The notes beneath the pieces were generated by a model that ran no database searches, was not told where the DNA came from, and saw only the letters and a program-made list of their open reading frames with translations. A stretch of DNA of 64,000 nt from an uncultured Gammaproteobacteria bacterium (GTDB lineage Bacteria; Patescibacteriota; Patescibacteriia; Magasanikbacterales; UBA922). Within the stretch, counting starts at the first letter, position 1. Each line of letters starts with the position of its first letter. The position numbers were made by a program, and so were the translations under genes. The DNA lies in the NCBI GenBank assembly GCA_964566225.1, contig CAZMHV010000001.1, forward strand, positions 242,651 through 306,650, given 5' to 3'. Positions 7,198-61,045 of the stretch are shown here, one piece after another.

Positions 7198-8988
7198 ATG
7201 TCTCTAGACCATCTCCTCACAGAGGCGCGACAACATATTGGACACGTGCAAGAATCACTCGGCAACACGCAAGTAACTCTTGAAACACAGTTTAAAAAAT
7301 TAATGAGTCAGTATCCCAAAGCAGAGGGAGCCGAAAAGATGACGCTGCACACGCTTTTGCAATACACCAAAAAACGACAGCACGAACTGACCGCGCTTCA
7401 CCCTTCACCATACTTTTCACGGTGTGATGTGATTCGAGAACACAAAGATGCAACCGTGTACATTGGAAAATTTTCTTTTCCCGAAGAATCTATTGTGTCT
7501 TGGGTCTCCCCTATTTCTACTCTTCGTTTTGAACATCCAGGACCAGCGACCTACACCACGCCTGATCGCACCAAAAAACCAGTGGTGCTCACGCGCAAAG
7601 ATGAATATATGATTACCGATGGGTCAGTTCTCTTTTTTGCCACCGAATCGATTGACACAGCAAGAACCTTGGTCTACCAAGAAAATTTTTCAAACCGCAA
7701 AACTGGATTTGTTTTGCCCGAAATTATTGCTCGCATGGAAGAAGCGCAAGATAAAGTTATTCGTTCTTCTTGGCGAGGACCCTTGGTTATTTCTGGTCCA
7801 GCAGGATCAGGAAAGACTACATTGGCCCTGCACCGCGTTGCCTACCTCATGCAAGTGCCAGAAATACAAGACCATTTTCCAGGTCACCGTATTCGCGTGT
7901 TTGTGCAAGACCCTGGAACCAAATCATATTTTGCAACACTCCTTCCAGATCTTGGAATTGATAATGTAGAAATAACCACATTTCGACAGTGGGCTCACGA
8001 TATTTTGGAACTTGTTCAAAACGATCAAGCAACCGAAGTGCAATCAGAATATTTGGAAGACATACTGACCAACGAAAAATTACAGATCCTGCGTGAATTC
8101 AAAACACCATTACAAGGTGAACCACTCCGTTGGCTCAAAAATTTGTATAGCATCAATCTTACTAACTCAAAAAATATTGTCCTTTCACGAATAGAAAAAA
8201 ATATCCTTGATGACATTGATCTCACCATTCTTTTGCAAGCATACAAAAAATCCAATGGCACACTGCGCGAATCTCGCGAATATTTTATGCAGCAAAAAAA
8301 TAAATATGAAATTCAAAGAAAAATAGGACGCTTTGATGTTTCGTATAACCTGTGTGTGGTCGATGAATTTCAAAATTATTTGCCCGAGCAACTTCAGCTT
8401 ATTCGCGGATGCATGAACGAAGAAACACAATCGATTGTATATGTGGGTGACATGCGACAACAAACACGATTTGGCACAGTGCAATCATGGAATCAAATTG
8501 GTGAAAATATTGACGACTCAAGACTCATTACCCTGGAAAAGGTCTACCGAAATACCAAAGAAATTTTGCAGTATATTGAATCACTTGGATACGTAGTTTC
8601 TATTCCCGAAGCACTGCCGCAAGGAACGCCGGTACAAGTACTCGCAGAGAGTGTGGAAACACCAGAACACATTAGCACACTTGCAGTCTCACACACGGAC
8701 CGATTGGTGGGTATACTTGCCAAAAACACCTCTGAACTGCTACCATACCTCCACCTTGCAACACACAAACATATCAAAGTCATGACCATACGGGAAGCAC
8801 AAGGTGTCGAATTTGATACGGTCTTTTTGGTGGGCAATACACAACAGACTTGGCAGGTTGATCCTGCGCTCTATACAGATGTCATGCGAAAAGAAAAAAC
8901 ACGCATCAACAAAGATTTACTCTATGTGGCATTGACTCGTGCCATGCGAGAATTGTATGTGGTTGGAACACTTCCACACGTATCTTAA
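7198..8988 (+). CDS. UvrD/Rep-family ATP-dependent DNA helicase (helicase IV/HelD-like)
   Basis: Walker A 'GPAGSGKTT', Walker B 'VVDEFQN', C-terminal 'REAQGVEFDTVFLVG'. ATG at 7198 with AGAGG 10 nt upstream. Confidence 0.75.
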   Translation: MSLDHLLTEARQHIGHVQESLGNTQVTLETQFKKLMSQYPKAEGAEKMTLHTLLQYTKKRQHELTALHPSPYFSRCDVIREHKDATVYIGKFSFPEESIVSWVSPISTLRFEHPGPATYTTPDRTKKPVVLTRKDEYMITDGSVLFFATESIDTARTLVYQENFSNRKTGFVLPEIIARMEEAQDKVIRSSWRGPLVISGPAGSGKTTLALHRVAYLMQVPEIQDHFPGHRIRVFVQDPGTKSYFATLLPDLGIDNVEITTFRQWAHDILELVQNDQATEVQSEYLEDILTNEKLQILREFKTPLQGEPLRWLKNLYSINLTNSKNIVLSRIEKNILDDIDLTILLQAYKKSNGTLRESREYFMQQKNKYEIQRKIGRFDVSYNLCVVDEFQNYLPEQLQLIRGCMNEETQSIVYVGDMRQQTRFGTVQSWNQIGENIDDSRLITLEKVYRNTKEILQYIESLGYVVSIPEALPQGTPVQVLAESVETPEHISTLAVSHTDRLVGILAKNTSELLPYLHLATHKHIKVMTIREAQGVEFDTVFLVGNTQQTWQVDPALYTDVMRKEKTRINKDLLYVALTRAMRELYVVGTLPHVS

Positions 8989-49447: not shown

Positions 49448-49942
49448 TTATTTTTTTAATTCTTTGAGCATTTCAATAGCTCTTTCTTTGTAACCATGAG
49501 ACAGATAAAATCCGTATGCGTTCGTGTTTGGTTTCAAAACTTCAAGGACAATATCATCATAATTATTCTCACGGAAATAATTCTCTATTTTCTCCATGAG
49601 CATTTTTCCAATTCCCTGCTTGCGGTATTCATCGTCGACATAGAGCTCCGTTACTCTTCCGCATTTTCGTTCGCCTTGTTCAACATTCAGCTGTGGGGAA
49701 TTTTCTTCGTGCACACCAATCACTCCACCGATAATTTTTTCGTCATCACACGCGACATAAAATTTTCCACCTTTTTCTTCAATTTCTTGTAATGTGAGCG
49801 TGAGATATTTTTCTGCAAATCCTTCTTCTCTTCGTAAGCGTTTCATGTCATCGATGGAGATAAGATAATCTTCAAATCGATCAGCGAGTGGAAGAATTGC
49901 TTCAAAGTCCGTTGACTCGTATTCTCTTATTATTATCTTCAT
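49448..49942 (-). CDS. GNAT-family N-acetyltransferase
   Basis: 'RKQGIGKMLMEKIENYFRE' motif A; 4-bp overlap with the upstream NUDIX gene. Confidence 0.7.
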   Translation of the reverse strand: MKIIIREYESTDFEAILPLADRFEDYLISIDDMKRLRREEGFAEKYLTLTLQEIEEKGGKFYVACDDEKIIGGVIGVHEENSPQLNVEQGERKCGRVTELYVDDEYRKQGIGKMLMEKIENYFRENNYDDIVLEVLKPNTNAYGFYLSHGYKERAIEMLKELKK

Positions 49943-50373
49943 ACATCTTTTAAAAAATACTTTTTCAAAACATACAATCCTTCTGGATGAAACTGACTTT
50001 CATCTTTTATCATTTCTCTCAATTGCTCCACAGAAAAAGCTTCAACCCGTTCCACTTCTTTTTTATCTGGAATAAATTCTCCATCGTACTGTCCTGTATA
50101 AATATACATCCACTCTTTATCTTCTTCACTAAACACGAATAATTCTTTGGCGATAAATTGTACATCAGCAGAGACACCAATTTCTTCTTGCAGTTCACGG
50201 TGCGCTGCTTGGTCGGGTGTTTCTCCTGCTTCAACTCCTCCTCCGGCAGTAGCATCCCAACAACCTCCGTAACTGTCGTCATCTTTGGCGCGCAGTTGCA
50301 GAAAAATTTTATTTTCTTTGTTACGAAGCATGATGAGCGAAGCCTCAGCAATAGTATGATCTTTATGTAACAT
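49939..50373 (-). CDS. NUDIX hydrolase
   Basis: Nudix box 'GGGVEAGETPDQAAHRELQEEIG'. Confidence 0.85.
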   Translation of the reverse strand: MLHKDHTIAEASLIMLRNKENKIFLQLRAKDDDSYGGCWDATAGGGVEAGETPDQAAHRELQEEIGVSADVQFIAKELFVFSEEDKEWMYIYTGQYDGEFIPDKKEVERVEAFSVEQLREMIKDESQFHPEGLYVLKKYFLKDV

Positions 50374-50465
50374 GTAATTTTATTAATTTTCTTTTATCCC
50401 TCAGAAACTCATTGATTCACGGTTGTATAGACTATAAATCAATGAGCGTTCTTAAGAATAAAATC

Positions 50466-50897
50466 TTATTTTACTTGAATGTCCACTTTTTTCGCTTTGG
50501 CAGGCGAAGCCTTGGGACAGGTAATTTTCAAAATACCTTCTTCAAAGACTGCGGCCACATTGCCTTCGTCCACTGCCACAGGGAGTGGCACTTGACGATA
50601 AAATGAACCACTACGAGTTTCTTTGCGATAGTAATTTTTTTCTTCTACTTCGTGTTCTTTACTACTGGTGCCACTAATGGTGAGCACACCTTTTTCTACA
50701 TTGACTTCAACATTTTTGGGATCAACGCCAGCGAGTGGAGTTTCTACTACCACAGCATCTTTGGTTTCGTACATGTCGAGAGCCGGCACAAAACCTTTTT
50801 GCATTGACTGATTACTGTTCATGGGTAACATGGATTTCATCATTTCATCCATGTCTTGAAATGGGTCCCATTGGGGTGACCATCGAATGATTGACAT
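50466..50897 (-). CDS. Hsp20/alpha-crystallin family small heat shock protein
   Basis: Alpha-crystallin domain 'DMYETKDAVVVETPLAGVDPKNVEVNVEKGVLTISG', 'GILKI'. Confidence 0.85.
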   Translation of the reverse strand: MSIIRWSPQWDPFQDMDEMMKSMLPMNSNQSMQKGFVPALDMYETKDAVVVETPLAGVDPKNVEVNVEKGVLTISGTSSKEHEVEEKNYYRKETRSGSFYRQVPLPVAVDEGNVAAVFEEGILKITCPKASPAKAKKVDIQVK

Positions 50898-52840: not shown

Positions 52841-53572
52841 CTAGTGACCAGATTTTTTGTCTTTGGGAGCAAAAATCGTTTTACTAAACTGGTGAATTAT
52901 ATCAGAAAAAAGCGAAGATGTCAATATAAAGAGGGACTTTACCATAGGAAGCATCCAGAGCGCCAAGAACGAAAAAACTGGAAAAACCAAGAGATATGCC
53001 AGATTGGCTTGACTAATTTTTTTGTCTTTTTGGTGACGATATTCCAAGTAAATTTCAAAAAAGAGCACCAGTCCGACCACCAATGGCCAAAACAAAGTAT
53101 GTGTCTCACCAAGCTCAAATCCGTAAAAATTGGTGTTGATAGTCCCTGGAATTTCTACTGATGGATAGAGGTATTCAAGCAGATTACGTCCACTGATACC
53201 ACGAATAAATACTTGGTAGAGAAGAATCAATACCAGAAGTTGTACCCCAATAACAATGATTCTCGCAAATGGGCGTACTTTTCTTTTTTTCAAAATTTTA
53301 CGCACATGCATTTTTTGCTGAACCGGATCTTGTTTGAATTCTTTCATCACTTTTTCTACTTCATGTTCAAGTTCTACATTTTGCGCTTGAGTCTTTTCGG
53401 TAAGTAAAGTAAATGGAAGTAATGCCAAACGGAGCAAAATAGTCAGATACACCACAGCCCAACCCAAATTTTGGTCAGTCCAGTTGTTGTAAATCCAAAT
53501 CAAAAGGTTAAAAACTGGTTTATACAAATATTCGTTCCACAAATCAAACATAAAAAAGAGACAAAAGTACAA
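52841..53572 (-). CDS. yidC: Membrane protein insertase YidC/Oxa1 family (short form)
   Basis: 'NLGWAVVYLTILLRLALLPFTLLTEKTQ' is the conserved first-TM region of YidC; a polytopic membrane protein. Confidence 0.75.
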   Translation of the reverse strand: MYFCLFFMFDLWNEYLYKPVFNLLIWIYNNWTDQNLGWAVVYLTILLRLALLPFTLLTEKTQAQNVELEHEVEKVMKEFKQDPVQQKMHVRKILKKRKVRPFARIIVIGVQLLVLILLYQVFIRGISGRNLLEYLYPSVEIPGTINTNFYGFELGETHTLFWPLVVGLVLFFEIYLEYRHQKDKKISQANLAYLLVFPVFSFLALWMLPMVKSLFILTSSLFSDIIHQFSKTIFAPKDKKSGH

Positions 53573-53612
53573 TGAATAGTATACCAGAAAAAGAGATAAA
53601 AAGCAATGAAAC

Positions 53613-53641
53613 TTGACAAAAATTCAAAAATAATGTATTAT
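53613..53641 (+). promoter_or_regulatory. sigma70-like promoter TTGACA-N17-TATTAT upstream of the tRNA pair
   Basis: Consensus -35, exact 17-nt spacer, -10 TATTAT; the tRNA begins 17 nt downstream. Confidence 0.55.
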
Positions 53642-53658
53642 TTCGAGTCAAATAATTT

Positions 53659-53733
53659 GGGGTCATAGCTCAATGGTAGAGCGAAGCGACCTTGGAAGTC
53701 GCACGGTTCGGGGTTCGAGTCCCCGTGATTCCA
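53659..53733 (+). tRNA. tRNA, probably tRNA-Pro (anticodon TGG), with non-canonical linker lengths
   Basis: Canonical D-arm GCTC-AATGGTA-GAGC, T-arm CGGGG-TTCGAGT-CCCCG, 7-bp acceptor (two G-U). The anticodon stem GCGAC/GTCGC with loop CTTGGAA is preceded by 3 nt (GAA) and followed by a 6-nt variable loop. Confidence 0.55.
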
Positions 53734-53744
53734 TGATTTTGACT

Positions 53745-53758
53745 GGCACTTCGGTGCC
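53745..53758 (+). other. C(UUCG)G tetraloop hairpin in the inter-tRNA spacer
   Basis: GGCAC-TTCG-GTGCC, followed by TCTTT. Confidence 0.4.
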
Positions 53759-53763
53759 TCTTT

Positions 53764-53835
53764 GGGGTTGTAGCTCAGCGGTAGAGCAGTGGGTTTAGGT
53801 CCCATGGGTCAGGGGTTCAAATCCCCTCTTCTCTA
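53764..53835 (+). tRNA. tRNA-like element with a tRNA-Leu(UAG)-type anticodon loop but class-I architecture and a non-pairing acceptor stem (possible pseudo-tRNA)
   Basis: D-arm GCTC-AGCGGTA-GAGC, anticodon stem GTGGG/CCCAT with loop TTTAGGT (identical to the E. coli tRNA-Leu-UAG loop), 5-nt variable loop, perfect T-arm AGGGG-TTCAAAT-CCCCT. The following 7 nt CTTCTCT do not pair with the 5' GGGGTTG; a CAACCC complement lies 10 nt further on. Confidence 0.35.
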
Positions 53836-53841
53836 TCCAAC

Positions 53842-53880
53842 CCGGGGTGTAGGCTTGTCCATGTGACACCTACACCCCGG
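53842..53880 (+). other. Perfect 12-bp hairpin (CCGGGGTGTAGG / CCTACACCCCGG, 15-nt loop) downstream of the tRNA-like element
   Basis: Seen in sequence; no T-run follows immediately. Confidence 0.4.
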
Positions 53881-53898
53881 GAACCAATTCACCAAAAC

Positions 53899-53932
53899 AA
53901 AAAGACATCCAGTATTTAGGATGTCTTTTTTA
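53899..53932. terminator. Bidirectional rho-independent terminator (tRNA operon / Mur ligase gene)
   Basis: AGACATCC-loop-GGATGTCT followed by TTTTTT; overlaps the stop codon of the minus-strand gene. Confidence 0.6.
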
Positions 53933-55262
53933 ATACTTCTCGAACAATTTTTCTGTCGTCCCAAGGAATAATTTTTCCTTTCACCACCATGCCCTGTTCA
54001 CTGCCCTTGCCTGTAATAAGTACCAAATCTTGTGGTCCTGCCATTTCAAGGGCCTTTTCAATGGCCTCTTTGCGATCCAAAATTTTAAATATATTTGTGC
54101 CTTCTTGTTTGCCTGTTTTCAGTACAGCAGAAGCCACATCATCAATAATGGTTTGAGGATTATCGTCGTATGGGTCTTCGTCGGTAATAATACACATGTC
54201 AGCATGATTCCCCACAAACTCACCCACGGTAAAACGACGCTGCACATCTCGGCCACCACCAGTAGAACCAAATACATGAATCACACGTTTGGGTACCAAA
54301 AGTTTTACTACTTCGTACAATTTTTGAATTGCCACAGGCTCAAATGCATAATCCACAATAACCTGAAATCCTTTTGCTTCGGCTTCTTTGATAAATTCCA
54401 AACGTCCTTCTGGTCCCTGCAAATTATTCACAGCTTGTTTTAACAGTGCCTCGGAAATTTGTAACCGATGCGCCACAGTGAGTGCTGCCAAAATATTTGA
54501 CACATTGTGTTCACCATAGAGTGGTGCATGAAAACTGTTTCCATTCCATACAAAGTGCAAACCATTTTTATCTGTGACAATATTTGCATTTGAACTTTGA
54601 AATTGTAATTTTTCATCAAAAGAATACTGCAAAAATTCATTGGCATATTCATTGTCGCCGTTGACCACAGCAATTTTTGGAATAGTATTTGAAAAAATCT
54701 TTTGCACTTTTGGTGTGAGCGCACGTGGTCCAGTCCATCGTCTTTGTGTGCCATGCACATTTTTGCGTCGAAGATTTGCAATGTGTTTGAAAAAAGAAAG
54801 TTTGGCGCCTTTGTAATTTTTGAAACTGCCATGTGACTCGATGTGTTCTGGATACAAATTGGTGAGCATGGCAATGTCGTAATTGATAAACCGGTGACGA
54901 TGCTGCACTACACCTTCGGATGTGGTTTCCACAATGGCAATGTCACATTGTTTGTTTACCATTTCACGCAAATACTTTTGAATTTGCATTTTGCCAAGCA
55001 TGGTCATTTTTTGGTCGTTGAGTTTCATTTCACCATTGATGTAAAAATCAATGGTAGAAAGTGAGCCGACTTTGAAACCAGCAGACTCCAAAATTTGTCG
55101 TAGAAAAAAAGTGGTGCTTGATTTGCCACTGGTTCCCGTAATACCAATCACCAGCAAACAATCTGCAGGGTGATGGTATTCGAGCGCGCCATACCAAGCA
55201 TAGTACAAATGCTTGAGGTTACGAATAGGTTTGGGGAGGAGTTTTTTGATGAGGGTTTTCAT
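53916..55262 (-). CDS. Mur ligase family protein, probably UDP-N-acetylmuramoyl-tripeptide synthetase (MurE-like, lacking the N-terminal domain)
   Basis: 'VIGITGTSGKSSTTF', 'NLYPEHIESHG', 'GRLEFI', 'DYAFEP' match MurE/Mur-ligase motifs. Confidence 0.6.
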   Translation of the reverse strand: MKTLIKKLLPKPIRNLKHLYYAWYGALEYHHPADCLLVIGITGTSGKSSTTFFLRQILESAGFKVGSLSTIDFYINGEMKLNDQKMTMLGKMQIQKYLREMVNKQCDIAIVETTSEGVVQHRHRFINYDIAMLTNLYPEHIESHGSFKNYKGAKLSFFKHIANLRRKNVHGTQRRWTGPRALTPKVQKIFSNTIPKIAVVNGDNEYANEFLQYSFDEKLQFQSSNANIVTDKNGLHFVWNGNSFHAPLYGEHNVSNILAALTVAHRLQISEALLKQAVNNLQGPEGRLEFIKEAEAKGFQVIVDYAFEPVAIQKLYEVVKLLVPKRVIHVFGSTGGGRDVQRRFTVGEFVGNHADMCIITDEDPYDDNPQTIIDDVASAVLKTGKQEGTNIFKILDRKEAIEKALEMAGPQDLVLITGKGSEQGMVVKGKIIPWDDRKIVREVLKKTS

Positions 55263-55935: not shown

Positions 55936-56282
55936 TAGAGGGCATTTACAAATCCCTGAAGAAAAGCAATATCTTCACCTGTACCAATTTTATTTTTTTT
56001 GAGAATTTCAATTACCTTTTGTTTGTAATCTTTATCTTTTTGAGATTCTTTTTCAAGGCGTTTAAAAATGTCTGTGGTATAATCTGATAGTTTTCGATCA
56101 ATATATGTCTTCAGATTATGTTCTAACTTCACGTTTTCTGATTTCATCTCTGTTCGTAAACCATCGATTTTTCCATCCATCATATCTGACATGGCCGGAA
56201 TCAAAAAATCATTAGCAAACTCTACCAATAAATCTTTCATTTCTTCTTTTGTTGCAGGAGAATTATTTTTCATATACATCAA
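55935..56282 (-). CDS. hypothetical helical protein (115 aa), co-transcribed downstream of the translin homologue
   Basis: AT-rich native-type composition; no recognisable motif. Confidence 0.45.
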   Translation of the reverse strand: MMYMKNNSPATKEEMKDLLVEFANDFLIPAMSDMMDGKIDGLRTEMKSENVKLEHNLKTYIDRKLSDYTTDIFKRLEKESQKDKDYKQKVIEILKKNKIGTGEDIAFLQGFVNAL

Positions 56283-56316
56283 TTATAATCATCCTTTTCT
56301 TTTTCTGTCAAGTCTG

Positions 56317-56901
56317 CTACTTTCCACCACGCAGTGTCGTCTCATACACCACCACCTCAAGTTTATGCGCCGCCTGTTTGGCCTGGTCAAATTTGTTGCG
56401 TAAATATTTGGTGAGATTAAATTCCATGAGTTCACCAATAATTTCTTCGGCAGCAAGGGAACATTTTTTTACTGTGTTCATGTCGTGATTGGTTGCGGCA
56501 CGAATGGCGTAGCGAAAGAGTTCGCCTGGAACATCACAGAGACCTGCCAAATAAATTTCACCTGGCACATCAAGTCCTTTGACTTCTCCCATTTCTCCGG
56601 TTTTCAAAAATTGGTAAAATAAACTGGCTTCCACATATTCTTCGAGTGCTGCGGCAAAAACACCTTCGTCTTGAATTTCTGGATTCTTTTTATTGCGTTT
56701 GACCAAATCTTTCATGATGGATTCCACGAGTTTCAACTTTTGTTCGGCCTCTTTGACTTCACCTCGGTGAAGATCAAAAATAACTCGCTTGGCATGGTGC
56801 AAAGCATCGTCAGAACTTTTAATAACGTCCCGGCGGATGAGGGCGTATTCATGAAGATTTTTCTTGAGTTTTTCTACGTAATTCTTTTTGAGCATAGGCA
56901 A
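56317..56901 (-). CDS. Translin-family protein
   Basis: 'EEYVEASLFYQFL', 'YLAGLCDVPGELFRYAIRAATNHD' and 'LRNKFDQAKQAAHKLEVVVYETTLRG' align with the human translin C-terminal region ('YLVGVLQLASELSRLSVNSVTAGD', 'LRKRYDGLKYDVKKVEEVVYDLSIRG'). Confidence 0.6.
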   Translation of the reverse strand: MPMLKKNYVEKLKKNLHEYALIRRDVIKSSDDALHHAKRVIFDLHRGEVKEAEQKLKLVESIMKDLVKRNKKNPEIQDEGVFAAALEEYVEASLFYQFLKTGEMGEVKGLDVPGEIYLAGLCDVPGELFRYAIRAATNHDMNTVKKCSLAAEEIIGELMEFNLTKYLRNKFDQAKQAAHKLEVVVYETTLRGGK

Positions 56902-56958
56902 AAATAAGGGTCAATAAGTGCCTGTATTATATACTCCCCACCCCTTTTGGTCAAAAAC

Positions 56959-56987
56959 TTGACTTTTTTTTGAAAAAGTTTTATTAT
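56959..56987 (+). promoter_or_regulatory. sigma70-like promoter TTGACT-N17-TATTAT upstream of tRNA-Lys
   Basis: Exact 17-nt spacer; the tRNA begins 21 nt downstream. Confidence 0.5.
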
Positions 56988-57008
56988 AAAGCGGTTCAAA
57001 AAAACCAT

Positions 57009-57081
57009 GGGATGGTAGCTCAGTCGGTAGAGCAGTAGCCTTTTAAGCTAATGGTCCTGGGTTCGATCCCCAGCCGTCCCA
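57009..57081 (+). tRNA. tRNA-Lys (anticodon TTT)
   Basis: Acceptor GGGATGG/CCGTCCC, D-arm GCTC-AGTCGGTA-GAGC, anticodon loop CTTTTAA, T-arm CTGGG-TTCGATC-CCCAG, discriminator A; no encoded CCA. Confidence 0.8.
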
Positions 57082-57084
57082 CAC

Positions 57085-57120
57085 AAAAAAATACCTCGAG
57101 AAATTCGAGGTATTTTTTAT
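57085..57120 (+). terminator. Rho-independent terminator after tRNA-Lys
   Basis: ATACCTCGA-GAAAT-TCGAGGTAT followed by TTTTTT. Confidence 0.7.
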
Positions 57121-57239
57121 TATATTTTTCAATCCCGCACTCCTAGAATATGTCGAACAGTCAACAGATTCTGCTGCTGCGGGATCGACGAAATTTCACC
57201 TTCTCCCCCGCAACAACACCGGCATTGCACCGGGGGGGG

Positions 57240-58145
57240 TCAGTAGTCGATCTGGTTCGCCGGGAGCGGATCGATGAGCCTGATCTGGCGGAGGCGACGG
57301 AACTTGTAGGCGCCGGCCGTCACCAGAGGCTGAGTGACCTCCGGGTGGATGAAGATCGGCATGGAGAACCGATCCCGGCAGGCCGCGCGCGGGTTGACCA
57401 CGCGGTGCGTCACCGAGGGGATCTCGCCGAACGTGTGCATCTGCAGCATGTCACCAGGGTTGACGATGATCGACCCCATGGGGTTGTTGGCGTCCAGCCA
57501 CACGCCGTCGCGCGTCTTCACCTGCAGGCCCGGCTCGTCCGACGGCACCAACAGAGTGACCAGGTTGATGTCCTCGTGATCACCCGAACGGGGCACTTCG
57601 GGGTCCGAGCCGTCCAGCGCCGGGTAGTGGATGACGCGGAGCAGGTTCTCGCCCTTGGCGATCCAGTTGAGGAAGAAGTTCGGATCGCGACCGAGGTGCA
57701 TGGCGAGCGCCTTCAGGATCGTTCCACCAGCACAGGCCTTGAGCGCCGCGTGAAGTTCCAGAGCCGTGGGCCCGAAGTCCGGCACCTCGACCGGGAACTC
57801 GTTCCGAACGATCGACGCCGGATCGTTGACGTGCCAGAAGGCCATGCGGTTGGCCCGGGTCTGCCCCACCGAGACTTCGGTGTCCGCGGGCGTGAAGCCC
57901 ATCTGGTGACCCTCGGCCACGAACTCGTACCGCAGCCGCTGCTCCAGGGTCATGCGGGTGAGGAAGACCTCACGCGCGAGCTCGAAAGCCCGGGCGAGAA
58001 GATTCTCCTGCACGCCGTGTCCGACGATGGAGACGAAGCCGTGCTCACGGAAGATACGCCCGAGCGCGTCCGCGATTTCCATGTCTCCCGCTTCGTCTTC
58101 TCCGAAGCGGTGCATGTCAAGAATGGGAATACCACTCAATTTCAT
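57240..58145 (-). CDS. 2OG-Fe(II) oxygenase, isopenicillin-N-synthase-like family (GC-rich, foreign composition)
   Basis: N-terminal DIOX_N-like 'IPILDMHRF', HxD 'HEDINLVTLL', distal His in 'THRVVNP'; about 62% GC. Confidence 0.7.
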   Translation of the reverse strand: MKLSGIPILDMHRFGEDEAGDMEIADALGRIFREHGFVSIVGHGVQENLLARAFELAREVFLTRMTLEQRLRYEFVAEGHQMGFTPADTEVSVGQTRANRMAFWHVNDPASIVRNEFPVEVPDFGPTALELHAALKACAGGTILKALAMHLGRDPNFFLNWIAKGENLLRVIHYPALDGSDPEVPRSGDHEDINLVTLLVPSDEPGLQVKTRDGVWLDANNPMGSIIVNPGDMLQMHTFGEIPSVTHRVVNPRAACRDRFSMPIFIHPEVTQPLVTAGAYKFRRLRQIRLIDPLPANQIDY

Positions 58146-58214
58146 TACCCTTTCAATTTGAGTTCAATTATCCCAGGCAACCACGCCCGAGAACCACCCG
58201 CAAGAATACAAAAA

Positions 58215-58240
58215 ATACTTTTGATTGTCAACAAAAGTAT
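58215..58240 (+). promoter_or_regulatory. Perfect 9-bp inverted repeat ATACTTTTG-N8-CAAAAGTAT (operator candidate) overlapping the -35
   Basis: Seen in the divergent intergenic region between the oxygenase and the nucleoside phosphorylase. Confidence 0.4.
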
Positions 58241-58268
58241 TGACAAACAGAAGAATTTTCTTTATTCT
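58240..58268 (+). promoter_or_regulatory. sigma70 promoter TTGACA-N17-TATTCT for the nucleoside phosphorylase gene
   Basis: Consensus -35, 17-nt spacer; AGGGGA RBS before the ATG at 58300. Confidence 0.5.
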
Positions 58269-58299
58269 GCACCTACACCAACAACCAGGGGAAACCCAA

Positions 58300-59109
58300 A
58301 TGAGTGAGAAAGCTGTCTCGGCAGCCCGTCCGATCATCGGTGGACTGACCATGCACCTCAAGACCGCGCCGGGCTCGCTGGCGCCGCACTGCCTCATGGT
58401 GGGCGCGGCGGGGCGTGCACGGACGATCGCGCAGGAGTACCTGACCGGCGCAGTCAAGGTGGGCGGTGACGACAACCGCTACTACGACTGCTACACGGGC
58501 GAGTACAGGGGGTTGCCGATCTCCGTGGTCACCCACGGGATCGGCATGCCTTCGATGCTCATCGCGATCGAAGAGTCCCGCATGTCAGGTGCCCAACGGT
58601 ACCTGCGAATCGGGTCGTGCTCCACGCTCCGGCGAGACATCAACATCGGTGACGTAGCCATCGTGGCCGGCGCGCTCCCGCCGGGCGCGACAGACATCGA
58701 CGGGTTGGTGAATGCTGACCCAAGGATGTACCACGCGCTTCTCGAAGCTGCAGACAAGATCGTCAAGGTGCCCTATGCCTACGGCATCTGCGTGACCACC
58801 AACGACTTCACTGGTGGGCAGGGCAGGCCGGACGCAGAAGGCTTCCTGGACGAGGAGGACAAGCTCGATCACGAAGCGAGGATCAACGGCGGCGAGATCG
58901 ACTTCTACGACATGGAGAACTACGCGCTGTTCAACCGGGCCAGGACTCGTCGCACCGCGAGACGCGCCGGCTTCATGGCCGGCAGCGTGATGGCGGTATA
59001 CGGCAACCGCATCACTGACCAGCTCGTCGAGCACGCCGGTGACAAGGAGACCATCGAGACGGCCCTGCAGGCCATGGTGCTGCTCGCGCACGACCACCCC
59101 CTCCCCTGA
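58300..59109 (+). CDS. PNP/UDP-family (family-1) nucleoside phosphorylase/nucleosidase (GC-rich, foreign composition)
   Basis: 'HCLMVGAAGRARTIAQEYL' resembles the DeoD 'VVLMPGDPLRAKYIAETFL' region; 'ISVVTHGIGMPSMLIAIEE' and 'GSCSTLRRDINIGDVAIV' resemble the family core. Confidence 0.65.
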   Translation: MSEKAVSAARPIIGGLTMHLKTAPGSLAPHCLMVGAAGRARTIAQEYLTGAVKVGGDDNRYYDCYTGEYRGLPISVVTHGIGMPSMLIAIEESRMSGAQRYLRIGSCSTLRRDINIGDVAIVAGALPPGATDIDGLVNADPRMYHALLEAADKIVKVPYAYGICVTTNDFTGGQGRPDAEGFLDEEDKLDHEARINGGEIDFYDMENYALFNRARTRRTARRAGFMAGSVMAVYGNRITDQLVEHAGDKETIETALQAMVLLAHDHPLP

Positions 59110-59217
59110 CCTTGCCTCGGCAAGGGGACACGCGGGTGGCATCAAGGACGACGTCACCCGGACTGTGCATTTCATTTTTGAAAAATACAGTTTGGAGATG
59201 TGATGTCGTCTCAACAT

Positions 59218-59256
59218 AAAAATAATCCCGTTTTCTGCGGGATTATTTTTTTATCT
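59218..59256. terminator. Bidirectional rho-independent terminator
   Basis: AATAATCCCG-loop-CGGGATTATT followed by TTTTTTT. Confidence 0.65.
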
Positions 59257-59264
59257 TTCAAATT

Positions 59265-59678
59265 TTAATTTGCCTTCTTAAACTTCACCTGAAACACTGG
59301 CTCATAATTTTGTTCGTATTCATCAGTTACAGAAACAGTCTCCCCTTTCATTACTTGAGTCATAGCAATGTCACTGAGCATTTCGTTGTCACTTTCAATG
59401 TCAATTTTCAAATCTTCAATTTGTTGAAATTCGTTGTGAAAATCTTGGCGAATGGTATTTTCAATTGATTTTTTCTTTTCACGAAGGGTCTTGAGTTTTT
59501 CCATGGCCTCAACATATTCTTGCACGGTTTTGAGCGCATCACTGTATGATGTTTTTAAATCTTTCATTTTCTTTTTATTTTTTTGAATGCGCACGAAAAT
59601 TTCTTGGATGTTTTGCATAGAGTCATGAAGAAGTAAAAATGATTGCTCTATTATAGATGAAAAAATGATTCTGGTCAA
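59265..59678 (-). CDS. hypothetical coiled-coil protein (AT-rich, native composition)
   Basis: Lys/Glu-rich helical ORF between two GC-rich genes. Confidence 0.45.
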   Translation of the reverse strand: MTRIIFSSIIEQSFLLLHDSMQNIQEIFVRIQKNKKKMKDLKTSYSDALKTVQEYVEAMEKLKTLREKKKSIENTIRQDFHNEFQQIEDLKIDIESDNEMLSDIAMTQVMKGETVSVTDEYEQNYEPVFQVKFKKAN

Positions 59679-59813
59679 AGAACAAAAAAACTGACTCTAT
59701 ATGAATCAGTTTTTTTGTAATTTGTGAAAACAAAATTTTCTTTGCACAAATCTCCCCCGGCCGCCTTGCACGAAATTGTGAACAGGGCGGGCCGGTGAAT
59801 ACGTTGTTGTGGG

Positions 59814-60896
59814 TTACTGAACTGCCGAGACAGCCTGAGCATCAGCAGGTGCACAGATACTCGTCATCACCTCGTGAGTCCTGGCCATCTCCGGAAATGA
59901 CGGAAACTGAAACCCTGAGAGTGTCTGAACATGCGAGGACTTGTCGAGCTTGAGCAGCTTGGTGATATCCTCCATCTGCTCGGCACAGAAAATATCGTCG
60001 AGCACAGCCTGACGAACCGGTGTTTCCTCATACGCCGCTTGATAGGCCATAGCTTCGGCCACCACAAACTGCATATACTGCTCGCGGATGTCTCCAATGC
60101 AGAGTGAGATCTGATTGGGATTTTTCACCCCGTTCAGATGAAAATCTGCGAGCAAATTGAGCGCCACAACGGAACGAATCACGAACTGTCCATTGGCATC
60201 CCTCGGCAACGCCTCCCGCAGATTCCAGTGCAACTGTGCACACTGGGCTTCGCGGTGACGTGTACGAAAGCACTCCAACTTCTTGGCCGCCGCTCGACTG
60301 GTCTTGGCTGCACTCGTCAGCACACCTTCGCACTGAGCTCGAGTGCTCTCGGTCAGACTGACCTTCTCCGTGATCAGTTTGGACGAAGGTGCAAAGCCCC
60401 GCCACTCCCAGTCTTCACTGTAAACCTTACATGGGAGATTCCTACAGACGGTGAGCAGATCAGCGTCCGAGACCACCGCCTGAACCGAGGACGAGACCGC
60501 CACGGTTGGTAGCGCAGGTGGAAGAGGTGGAGTTGGCGCTGTCGTATCAGGTTCCAGAGACGGAGGCGAAACCGGCGATGATAGCATCACCGGAAGGGAC
60601 TTCGCCGGGACAGGAAGAACCAGCGTCGGCTCCGAAGAGATTGCGCCCAGCAACCACGCGATGTCATCCAAATCCCCTGCAGCATGGAAGTCTTCGACCA
60701 CCACCTCCTTTTCGTCTTGCGAACTGCCCCCCGAGGCTCCCAGGAAGTATCCACCTCCAAACGACACAGCCCAGAGAAACAGAACGCTGCGGACGACGTT
60801 CCGAAGAGCCTTTCCACTCAACTCGATTTTGTTGCTCACGACAGACTCCCCTCGCGCCTCGCGCGAATTGAAAAAGTGAAGCATCAGTCGACCCAT
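59814..60896 (-). CDS. hypothetical membrane-anchored protein with Pro-rich linker (GC-rich, foreign composition)
   Basis: About 55% GC; N-terminal TM 'VVRSVLFLWAVSFGGGYFLGA', linker 'PTPPLPPALP', Cys-containing C-terminal domain. Confidence 0.45.
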   Translation of the reverse strand: MGRLMLHFFNSREARGESVVSNKIELSGKALRNVVRSVLFLWAVSFGGGYFLGASGGSSQDEKEVVVEDFHAAGDLDDIAWLLGAISSEPTLVLPVPAKSLPVMLSSPVSPPSLEPDTTAPTPPLPPALPTVAVSSSVQAVVSDADLLTVCRNLPCKVYSEDWEWRGFAPSSKLITEKVSLTESTRAQCEGVLTSAAKTSRAAAKKLECFRTRHREAQCAQLHWNLREALPRDANGQFVIRSVVALNLLADFHLNGVKNPNQISLCIGDIREQYMQFVVAEAMAYQAAYEETPVRQAVLDDIFCAEQMEDITKLLKLDKSSHVQTLSGFQFPSFPEMARTHEVMTSICAPADAQAVSAVQ

Positions 60897-61045
60897 TCGA
60901 CCGAAAATACAACAGAAAAAATTTTCTCCTGTACATTCGGCCGAATCTATAACAACGTATTTTTTCTCCTCATAAAAAGAACAACTTAGAAAATTCTAAG
61001 TTGCTGAGTATAGCAAAAAAAACTTATAAAGTCAAGAAGCAACGC

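Follow-up and report, generated by a model that had tools for sequence, protein, structure and literature searches.

A tandem pair of class-I tRNAs combining alanine-type acceptor ends with Pro and Leu anticodons in an optional cassette of a Magasanikbacteria-like genome

Introduction

Dedicated mistranslating tRNAs have been described in Streptomyces and Kitasatospora, where the bacterial tRNAProX (tRNAProA/N/T) is encoded beside a dedicated isoform of prolyl-tRNA synthetase (ProRS) (PMC10404621). Anticodon variants of tRNA-Ala are known as natural human variants, as the tRNA-Ala(CAG) of the yeast CUG-Ala clade and from engineered yeast sets (PMC12084884, PMC11415595, PMC10543346); among the latter, tRNA-Ala(UGG) and tRNA-Ala(UAG) caused strong mistranslation in yeast (PMC10543346). 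Recognition by alanyl-tRNA synthetase (AlaRS) has a near-sufficient determinant in the acceptor pair G3·U70 (PMC11415595). In the mitochondria of Ashbya gossypii, G3·U70 makes a class-I tRNA(UAG) an AlaRS substrate, and a variant with an 8-nt anticodon loop keeps 42% activity (PMC3874161); a relative of this tRNA, the yeast mitochondrial tRNA-Thr(UAG) with its anticodon loop of 8 nt, decodes CUN as Thr (PMC3113583, PMC7609411). Here we describe a cassette of two tRNA genes, with the anticodons UGG (tRNA1) and UAG (tRNA2), in a 64,000-nt stretch of contig CAZMHV010000001.1, hereafter referred to as the window.

Among bacteria, the Pro-identity tRNAProX family is the one known case of encoded mistranslation through a mismatch between identity and anticodon, and cases with Ala identity come only from yeasts, mitochondria and human variants; alanine mis-insertion by identity-mismatched tRNAs has so far not been described for bacteria. 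The host of the cassette is a Patescibacteria chromosome whose nearest named relatives are Candidatus Magasanikbacteria. As detailed below, comparison with related genomes leads us to conclude that the cassette tRNAs carry Ala-type acceptor ends on Pro/Leu anticodons, and that they are structurally constrained and optional.

Results

tRNA genes were called with ARAGORN and with Infernal using the Rfam model RF00005 (gathering score 29). ARAGORN found four tRNAs in the window, namely the neighbouring tRNA1 and tRNA2 and one tRNA each for Gln and Lys. Two collections served for comparison: a survey of 185 tRNAs drawn from every locus retrieved, and a syntenic set of eight genomes comprising the window (identical in L017/L049), L018, L019, L020, L021, L045, L046 and L047. 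In the labels for orthologues, W stands for the window and L for L021, followed by 1 or 2 for tRNA1 or tRNA2, and X1 is the tRNA of L045. Both cassette tRNAs form the 7/4/5/5-bp cloverleaf of an elongator tRNA above the RF00005 threshold and possess the conserved tertiary nucleotides U8, A14, G18-G19, A21, U54-U55-C56 and A58; an encoded CCA is absent from both.

G3·U70 and A73 are present in all four cassette tRNAs of the window and L021. The ends of the window tRNAs match GGGG…[C/U]UC[C/U]-A, and the full GGGG…CUCC-A end was counted in three of the four. The supporting elements for AlaRS (A73, G2-C71 and G4-C69) are complete in tRNA2, L1 and L2, and the G4·U69 pair of tRNA1 was also seen in one genuine tRNA-Ala of the sample. 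Among the 185 surveyed tRNAs, G3·U70 occurred in 7/7 tRNA-Ala and in only three other tRNAs outside the cassette. The anticodons are UGG and UAG and not the NGC of alanine, so that acceptor identity and anticodon disagree under standard decoding in the manner of tRNAProX, with an Ala-type acceptor on Pro and Leu anticodons.

Three synthetases, AlaRS, seryl-tRNA synthetase (SerRS) and leucyl-tRNA synthetase (LeuRS), ignore the anticodon of their substrates. Judging by its nucleotides, tRNA2 contains the determinant of only one of these, AlaRS. This indifference toward the anticodon is in part also documented in the literature (PMC11415595).

tRNA2 (53764..53835, plus strand) obtained 60.6 bits with RF00005 (E = 1.2e-10 for the whole window), the second-highest score of the four tRNAs and better than two of the other three. 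Its D-stem has the standard 4 bp with a 7-nt loop, the T-arm is perfect, and a 5-bp anticodon stem closes the 7-nt loop UUUAGGU with the anticodon UAG. The original prediction, made from the letters of the window, had placed a tRNA-like element with a Leu(UAG) loop, a canonical D-arm and a perfect T-arm at this site, and both ARAGORN and RF00005 bear this out; the class-I scaffold with its 5-nt variable region was likewise recovered in the Infernal alignment (6 nt in L021). The same loop, UUUAGGU, is found in the class-II tRNA-Leu(UAG) genes of the sample, which are 83-85 nt long. tRNA2 has neither the long variable arm (>10 nt) nor the characteristic D-arm that mark a bacterial class-II tRNA-Leu, and to our knowledge every known bacterial tRNA-Leu is of class II with a distinctive D-arm. 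The acceptor had been described as non-pairing, CTTCTCT being set against GGGGTTG. This was overstated, since five of the seven pairs form (G1·U72, G2-C71, G3·U70, G4-C69 and G7-C66), with the mismatches U5xU68 and U6xU67 and with A73 as discriminator. The original prediction had named a high-scoring call by a tRNA finder as the sign of a wrong manual fold, and the ARAGORN call and the 60.6 bits are such a sign. What stands is the oddity of a Leu anticodon on a class-I scaffold whose acceptor contains two mismatches.

tRNA1 (53659..53733, plus strand; called by ARAGORN, 54.1 bits with RF00005) is also of class I, and its cloverleaf is the minimum-free-energy fold. The 6-nt variable loop previously attributed to it was found as described, but there are two extra nucleotides between D-arm and anticodon arm, giving a 3-nt connector, and not three. 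The acceptor starts with G1-C72, G2-C71, G3·U70 and G4·U69 and ends on A73. With its A37, the anticodon loop CUUGGAA equals the tRNA-Ala(UGC) loop CUUGCAA with C36 changed to G; all tRNA-Ala(UGC) loops in the sample read [U/C]UUGCAA. Genuine tRNA-Pro(UGG) in the sample has the loop UUUGGGA, with G37 in 8/9 and C1 in most. Measured against the marks of tRNA-Pro(UGG), which are G35-G36 and G37 together with C1-G72/A73, tRNA1 has G35-G36 and A73, but A37 and G1-C72.

Comparison of orthologues revealed 4 double compensatory changes and 1 broken pair for W1-L1, 9 and 0 for W1-X1, 4 and 1 for L1-X1, and 3 and 0 for W2-L2. Taken together, the three tRNA1 comparisons were tallied at one broken pair, the pairwise counts having one in W1-L1 and one in L1-X1. 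U33 and the anticodon are fixed in both window-L021 orthologue pairs, and all other loop positions have changed except G37 of tRNA2. The tRNA2 genes of the window and L021 have both U·U mismatches, G3·U70 and U33-UAG-G37 in common. In L021, both tRNAs have 8-nt anticodon loops with the additional base on the 5′ side. The tRNA1 homologue of L045 has the anticodon AAG, C3-G70 and G32, and the position of tRNA2 in that genome is occupied by a decayed remnant in which no model detects a tRNA even at E <= 10; by this comparison, loss does occur in the clade. Overall, identity between orthologues of the cassette tRNAs is only 71-82%. The syntenic tRNA-Lys, by contrast, reaches 96% for the window and L045, and its anticodon loop does not vary in any relative.

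Because W2-L2 shows three double compensatory changes without new breaks and a conserved UAG, we conclude from the alignment that tRNA2 of the window is a genuine, maintained tRNA gene and not a pseudogene. A decaying pseudo-tRNA had been one of the proposed readings, and a comparison with the orthologous locus had been suggested as a check. This comparison showed tRNA2 to be conserved in L021, including U33-UAG-G37, and the element itself is far beyond chance. Lost pairing and absence of constraint, as expected of a tRNA pseudogene, apply only to the remnant in L045.

Codon usage was consistent with conventional decoding. Of the strongly conserved Pro positions in DnaK, 16/16 have CCA; CUU and CUC fall on Leu columns, and the residues that orthologues have opposite CUA and CUG are Leu or other hydrophobic ones. 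Reassignment of a sense codon was ruled out, as CCA, CUA, CUG, CUU and CUC fit Pro or Leu in DnaK, MurE and all syntenic orthologues. These alignments identify the genetic code of the host as standard; therefore, alanylated and active cassette tRNAs would mean mistranslation, not reassignment. CUA accounts for 1.7 per thousand codons in the window (31 of 18,351 in all 51 long open reading frames (ORFs)). It is the rarest Leu codon across the clade, at 0.5-4.7 per thousand (loci L018-L048), and DnaK contains no CUA, no UUA and only one CUG. A purging of CUA by the cassette was ruled out, CUA being equally rare in cassette-less relatives.

The two tRNA genes belong to a self-contained operon of ~320 bp, located between murE and yidC on the strand opposite to both neighbours. 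On one side it is flanked by yidC-SPFH-hrcA-grpE-…-dnaK and on the other by the gene for a MurE-type ligase, all on the minus strand. The order within the cassette is promoter, tRNA1(UGG), UUCG hairpin, tRNA2(UAG), 13-bp trailer hairpin and bidirectional terminator. The putative strong promoter of the sigma-70 type (53613..53641, plus strand) consists of TTGACA and TATTAT separated by 17 nt and agrees with the consensus at 11/12 positions; its -35 box and spacing are kept in L021 and L045. Folding of the spacer between the tRNAs (53745..53758, plus strand) confirmed the previously noted C(UUCG)G hairpin as GGCAC-UUCG-GUGCC. The 21-nt block around it, UUUGACUGGCACUUCGGUGCC, is identical in the window and L021 and missing in L045, where tRNA2 has decayed.

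Downstream of tRNA2, the GC-rich hairpin reported earlier is indeed present (53841..53881, plus strand; folding z = -9.1), its stem being not 12 bp but 13 bp long, with a 4-bp apical extension. Its loop core, UGUCCAUGUGAC, is conserved in L021, and a U-tract is absent 3′ of the hairpin. In L021 the same stem has accumulated two double compensatory changes, as judged by sequence comparison, and in L045 the stem is likewise 13 bp long with a different apex. The hairpin occurs once in the window, and as a single-copy element it was ruled out as a dispersed repeat. The cassette is closed by a bidirectional intrinsic terminator (53899..53933), which has a 12-bp stem with A/U tracts on both sides and serves the cassette on the plus strand and the convergent murE on the minus strand. 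L021 shares it, L045 has one of different sequence, and sites that lack the cassette have none. The Gln and Lys tRNAs of the window are fully canonical, with G3-C70, and have plain U-tract terminators directly after them without such a hairpin. The oddities and the trailer hairpin are therefore specific to the cassette.

The cassette is present in three of the eight syntenic genomes (window, L021 and L045), where the gap between murE and yidC is about 350 bp. The other five (L018, L019, L020, L046 and L047) have an empty site with 40-92 bp between the two genes, and no scars that would tell gain from loss were found in these sites. In relatives at a MurE identity of <=61%, found through a MurE-based search of genome contigs, synteny was lost and no such tRNAs were seen. 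Pattern scans of IMG/VR and a single scan of JGI metagenomes gave no further members, the latter yielding only unrelated intron-bearing or partial tRNAs. Extension of the contig revealed no new tRNA, and hence no canonical tRNA-Pro, tRNA-Leu or tRNA-Ala of the same genome.

Neighbour-joining trees place the cassette in two sub-clades, with empty-site genomes in between. MurE joins the window to the cassette-less L018/L019, while YidC and SPFH+HrcA+GrpE join it to the cassette-bearing L021. This switch at the cassette suggests homologous recombination between related lineages, and the distribution fits an old optional locus that was repeatedly lost and/or exchanged in this way. Seen across the compared genomes, the cassette is one that the clade can dispense with. 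At 52841-55262 of the window, MurE identity is 82-85% to L018/L019 and 76% to L021; by YidC (78%) and SPFH+HrcA+GrpE (88%), the window is nearest to L021.

The original prediction had also considered a regulatory or mobile-element remnant. The part of this that holds is that the cassette is an optional insertion/deletion unit; with its own promoter and terminator, however, it resembles a working tRNA operon. No integrase, longer direct repeat or target duplication was found at the locus and among the 47 window proteins scanned with Pfam (47 of the 51 window ORFs), nor did these 47 include an aminoacyl-tRNA synthetase, editing factor, Fem/MurM, MprF, cyclodipeptide synthase or toxin gene. PHROG matches were absent from the ORFs neighbouring the cassette. 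A phage or viral origin was ruled out, as cassette-specific patterns matched nothing related in IMG/VR and the neighbouring ORFs lacked PHROG matches. An att scar of a tRNA-targeted integrative element was equally unsupported: the complementarity to the tRNA2 acceptor amounts to 6 nt and has not been kept in L021, the sites without a cassette are clean, and no integrase was found among the 47 scanned proteins.

We also considered a tRNA embedded in GOLLD RNA (RF02032). This was ruled out, because RF02032 had no match in the window at the gathering threshold, nor at E <= 1 in 53600-53950. Phage tRNA arrays in IMG/VR do contain GOLLD RNAs with a class-I 'tRNA-Leu(UAG)', scoring 159-191 bits (L023 12531-13023, L024 1962-2428, L027 3313-3771, L029 302-776 and L035 3186-3683). 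Several of these phages additionally hold a normal class-II tRNA-Leu(UAG), which calls for care when phage tRNAs are annotated by their anticodons. Another conserved phage tRNA-like gene was seen in two IMG/VR contigs of high GC content (L037 3343-3440 and L038 2396-2490), located 3′ of an ORF for a small membrane protein. About 20 nt are inserted into its anticodon loop (gene of 95 nt by ARAGORN, 'anticodon tagg'), and a conserved, structured-looking stretch comes after it.

Elsewhere in the neighbourhood, the segment between grpE and dnaK differs among relatives: it encodes Hsp20, NUDIX and GNAT proteins in the window (49939-50897), Hsp20 and two GNATs in L021 (5200-5712) and a methyltransferase-like protein in L045 (5165-5884), and is devoid of genes in L047. 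Window positions 56000-60900 have a GC content of 0.50-0.51, as compared to about 0.40 elsewhere, and adjoin tRNA-Lys (57009-57082). The high-GC ORFs at 57150-58307, 58585-59217, 59265-59618 and 59814-60896 had no Pfam or PHROG matches, and relatives (L020, L047) differ in the genes present between those for the GT4 glycosyltransferase and translin. A small variable island beside tRNA-Lys is a possible explanation. Near the left edge of the window, some 45 kb away from the cassette, lie the genes for a protein with a TraG/TraD-like C-terminal domain (17-1063) and for a helicase of the UvrD/'viral helicase 1' type (7198-8988), possibly left over from a conjugative or mobile element.

Discussion

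The reading that we tentatively prefer, possible though short of probable on the present comparisons, is that the cassette encodes identity-mismatched tRNAs that are charged by AlaRS and cause low-level Pro→Ala and Leu→Ala mistranslation. RNase P and a 3′ endonuclease would release both tRNAs from a dicistronic precursor before the addition of CCA. AlaRS, being blind to anticodons, would alanylate tRNA1 and tRNA2; at CCN and at CUA/CUG codons, these would then compete with the genuine tRNAs for Pro and Leu and place some alanine. The outcome would be a low level of encoded mistranslation with no change of the code. Expression, charging by AlaRS, ribosomal use and any benefit of the cassette tRNAs are what we infer from sequence data of three cassette-bearing genomes.

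Several observations weigh against AlaRS-dependent mistranslation. The tRNA1 homologue of L045 is perfectly folded despite its C3-G70 and AAG, and therefore the upkeep of this lineage does not strictly need G3·U70. That four related sequences have all kept G3·U70 is no strong statistical argument by itself, because other G·U and G-C pairs flip freely, and similarity over the whole body, judged against 160 reference tRNAs, fails to point to tRNA-Ala as the ancestor. tRNA2 has a weak acceptor stem, and its cloverleaf is not the minimum-free-energy fold, while tRNA1 carries G35-G36 and A73, so that ProRS may charge it too. At the level of codons, CUA is no rarer in cassette-bearing than in cassette-less genomes, and CCA, at 21 per thousand, is used more than any other Pro codon, for which reason efficient Pro→Ala substitution should be costly. 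Finally, no dedicated synthetase or editing factor was identified nearby by the Pfam scan of 47/51 window ORFs, and the cassette is known from three genomes only.

Conceivably, the cassette tRNAs are ordinary extra isoacceptors that supplement the decoding of CCA and the rare CUA, with ProRS charging tRNA1 by way of G35-G36/A73, LeuRS charging tRNA2 and the AAG tRNA of L045, and G3·U70 being incidental or masked. The anticodons are conserved under selection, tRNA2 has the same UUUAGGU loop as class-II tRNA-Leu(UAG), CUA is decoded as Leu and CCA as Pro, and the L045 tRNA combines a Leu anticodon with the absence of G3·U70. In addition, A73 is the LeuRS discriminator and is present in all cassette tRNAs. 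Nonetheless, the comparisons make this account rather unlikely: the 4-bp D-stem and 5-nt variable loop of tRNA2 are unlike those of a class-II bacterial tRNA-Leu, tRNA1 has A37 and G1-C72 where genuine tRNA-Pro(UGG) has G37 and C1-G72, and most relatives must decode the same codons without a cassette. Moreover, no similar class-I UAG tRNA was seen in JGI metagenomes, Magasanikbacteria relatives among them, and G3·U70 is near-sufficient for AlaRS (PMC11415595). A further account, which on the pattern of substitutions we also regard as improbable, would treat the tRNAs as redundant duplicates without a cassette-specific function, under relaxed selection and heading for loss, so that the U·U mismatches, G·U pairs, 8-nt loops, extra connector bases and shifted anticodons would be neutral. 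It would explain the absence of the cassette from 5/8 relatives, the decay of tRNA2 in L045 beyond recognition, an evolution several-fold faster than that of tRNA-Lys, the different non-canonical feature of each copy and the single-base steps that connect the anticodons UGC→UGG→UAG→AAG. Neutral drift sits poorly, however, with 3-9 double compensatory changes per orthologue pair and hardly any broken pairs, with U33 and anticodons that stay invariant amid changed loop bases, and with the upkeep of promoter, spacer hairpin, trailer hairpin (two compensatory changes) and terminator.

A role outside the ribosome strikes us as quite unlikely. The tRNAs might donate alanyl groups to a tRNA-dependent transferase for peptidoglycan cross-bridges or lipid aminoacylation, act as decoys or back-ups against anticodon-targeting nucleases, or carry a functional 3′-trailer RNA. 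The trailer hairpin is in fact conserved and cassette-specific, and weakened acceptor/T-stem pairs and altered anticodon loops recall non-proteinogenic tRNAs and the phage tRNAs that evade nucleases (PMC10264068). The cassette also adjoins murE, but so does the corresponding site in cassette-less relatives; a pure aminoacyl donor is not expected to conserve its anticodon, and no Fem/MurM, MprF, cyclodipeptide synthase or toxin gene was encountered in the 47/51 scanned window ORFs. Lastly, the original prediction had pointed to the hexamer CAACCC, which does occur 10 nt past the T-stem of tRNA2, as a possible acceptor 3′ strand displaced by an insertion, or as the scar of a mobile element at the 3′ end of the tRNA. 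CAACCC is a perfect complement of G2-G7, and the L021 counterpart CCACCCC could pair at 6/7 positions. There is no covariation, however, the L021 version CCACCC introduces a mismatch, and the CCC is taken up by the conserved hairpin of 13 bp that dominates every fold, none of which uses CAACCC as acceptor strand. The in-register strand CUUCUCY is conserved, neither an integrase nor a longer direct repeat accompanies the site, and we know of no bacterial splicing for such a 10-nt acceptor insert. This makes a displaced acceptor or scar extremely improbable, and we regard the complementarity as a by-product of the G-rich 5′ end of the tRNA lying beside the C-rich base of the hairpin.

Should AlaRS-dependent mistranslation apply, the cassette would be a tandem Pro→Ala / Leu→Ala module in Patescibacteria, and it is possible, if doubtful on the available comparisons, that its tRNAs are the first natural bacterial ones to put alanine at non-alanine codons. 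The module is fast-evolving, with the anticodons UGG, UAG and AAG and with 7- and 8-nt loops. By analogy with the mitochondrial CUN reassignments, it may represent an early, reversible stage in sense-codon capture of the rare CUA, and the mistranslation may be deliberate or merely tolerated. If the tRNAs are alanylated and used, mistranslation would extend to the ultra-small Patescibacteria, studies of AlaRS recognition and decoding could draw on two natural alanine mis-inserters that come with loops of 7 and of 8 nt, and the cassette would offer a living snapshot of the early capture of sense codons such as CUA. If, instead, the tRNAs are charged with Leu and Pro, a class-I bacterial tRNA-Leu would be unprecedented. 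Annotation pipelines, which go by the anticodon, label the two genes as tRNA-Pro and tRNA-Leu, possibly wrongly.

Among the known systems, the tRNA-like domain of GOLLD RNA resembles tRNA2 in being labelled a class-I 'tRNA-Leu(UAG)' by ARAGORN and Rfam, but it lies inside a structured RNA of ~450-500 nt on phage contigs and its acceptor sequences are unrelated to those of tRNA2. tRNA2 has its nearest precedent in the tRNA-Ala(UAG) of Ashbya mitochondria, with which it shares class I, UAG and G3·U70, while the yeast mitochondrial tRNA-Thr(UAG) lineage shares the 8-nt anticodon loop with the tRNA2 orthologue of L021. In mitochondria, however, tRNA-Leu(UAG) was lost and CUN fully reassigned, whereas here CUA/CUG still align to Leu and the tRNA is an optional one of a bacterium, known from sequence. 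Like the tRNA-Ala variants of human and yeast, the cassette tRNAs join an Ala acceptor to a non-Ala anticodon, and the loop of tRNA1 is one base (C36G) away from that of tRNA-Ala(UGC). Those variants keep clear Ala bodies, while in the cassette Ala ancestry is visible only at the acceptor ends and in the tRNA1 loop, and tRNA2, unlike them, has two acceptor mismatches. The closest bacterial analogue is tRNAProX, which is likewise chromosomal and patchy in distribution, with discordant identity and anticodon under the standard code. There, Pro identity is combined with Ala, Asn or Thr anticodons beside an adjacent ProRS; the cassette, with no nearby synthetase, is a tandem pair in which Ala-type acceptor ends are joined to Pro and Leu anticodons.

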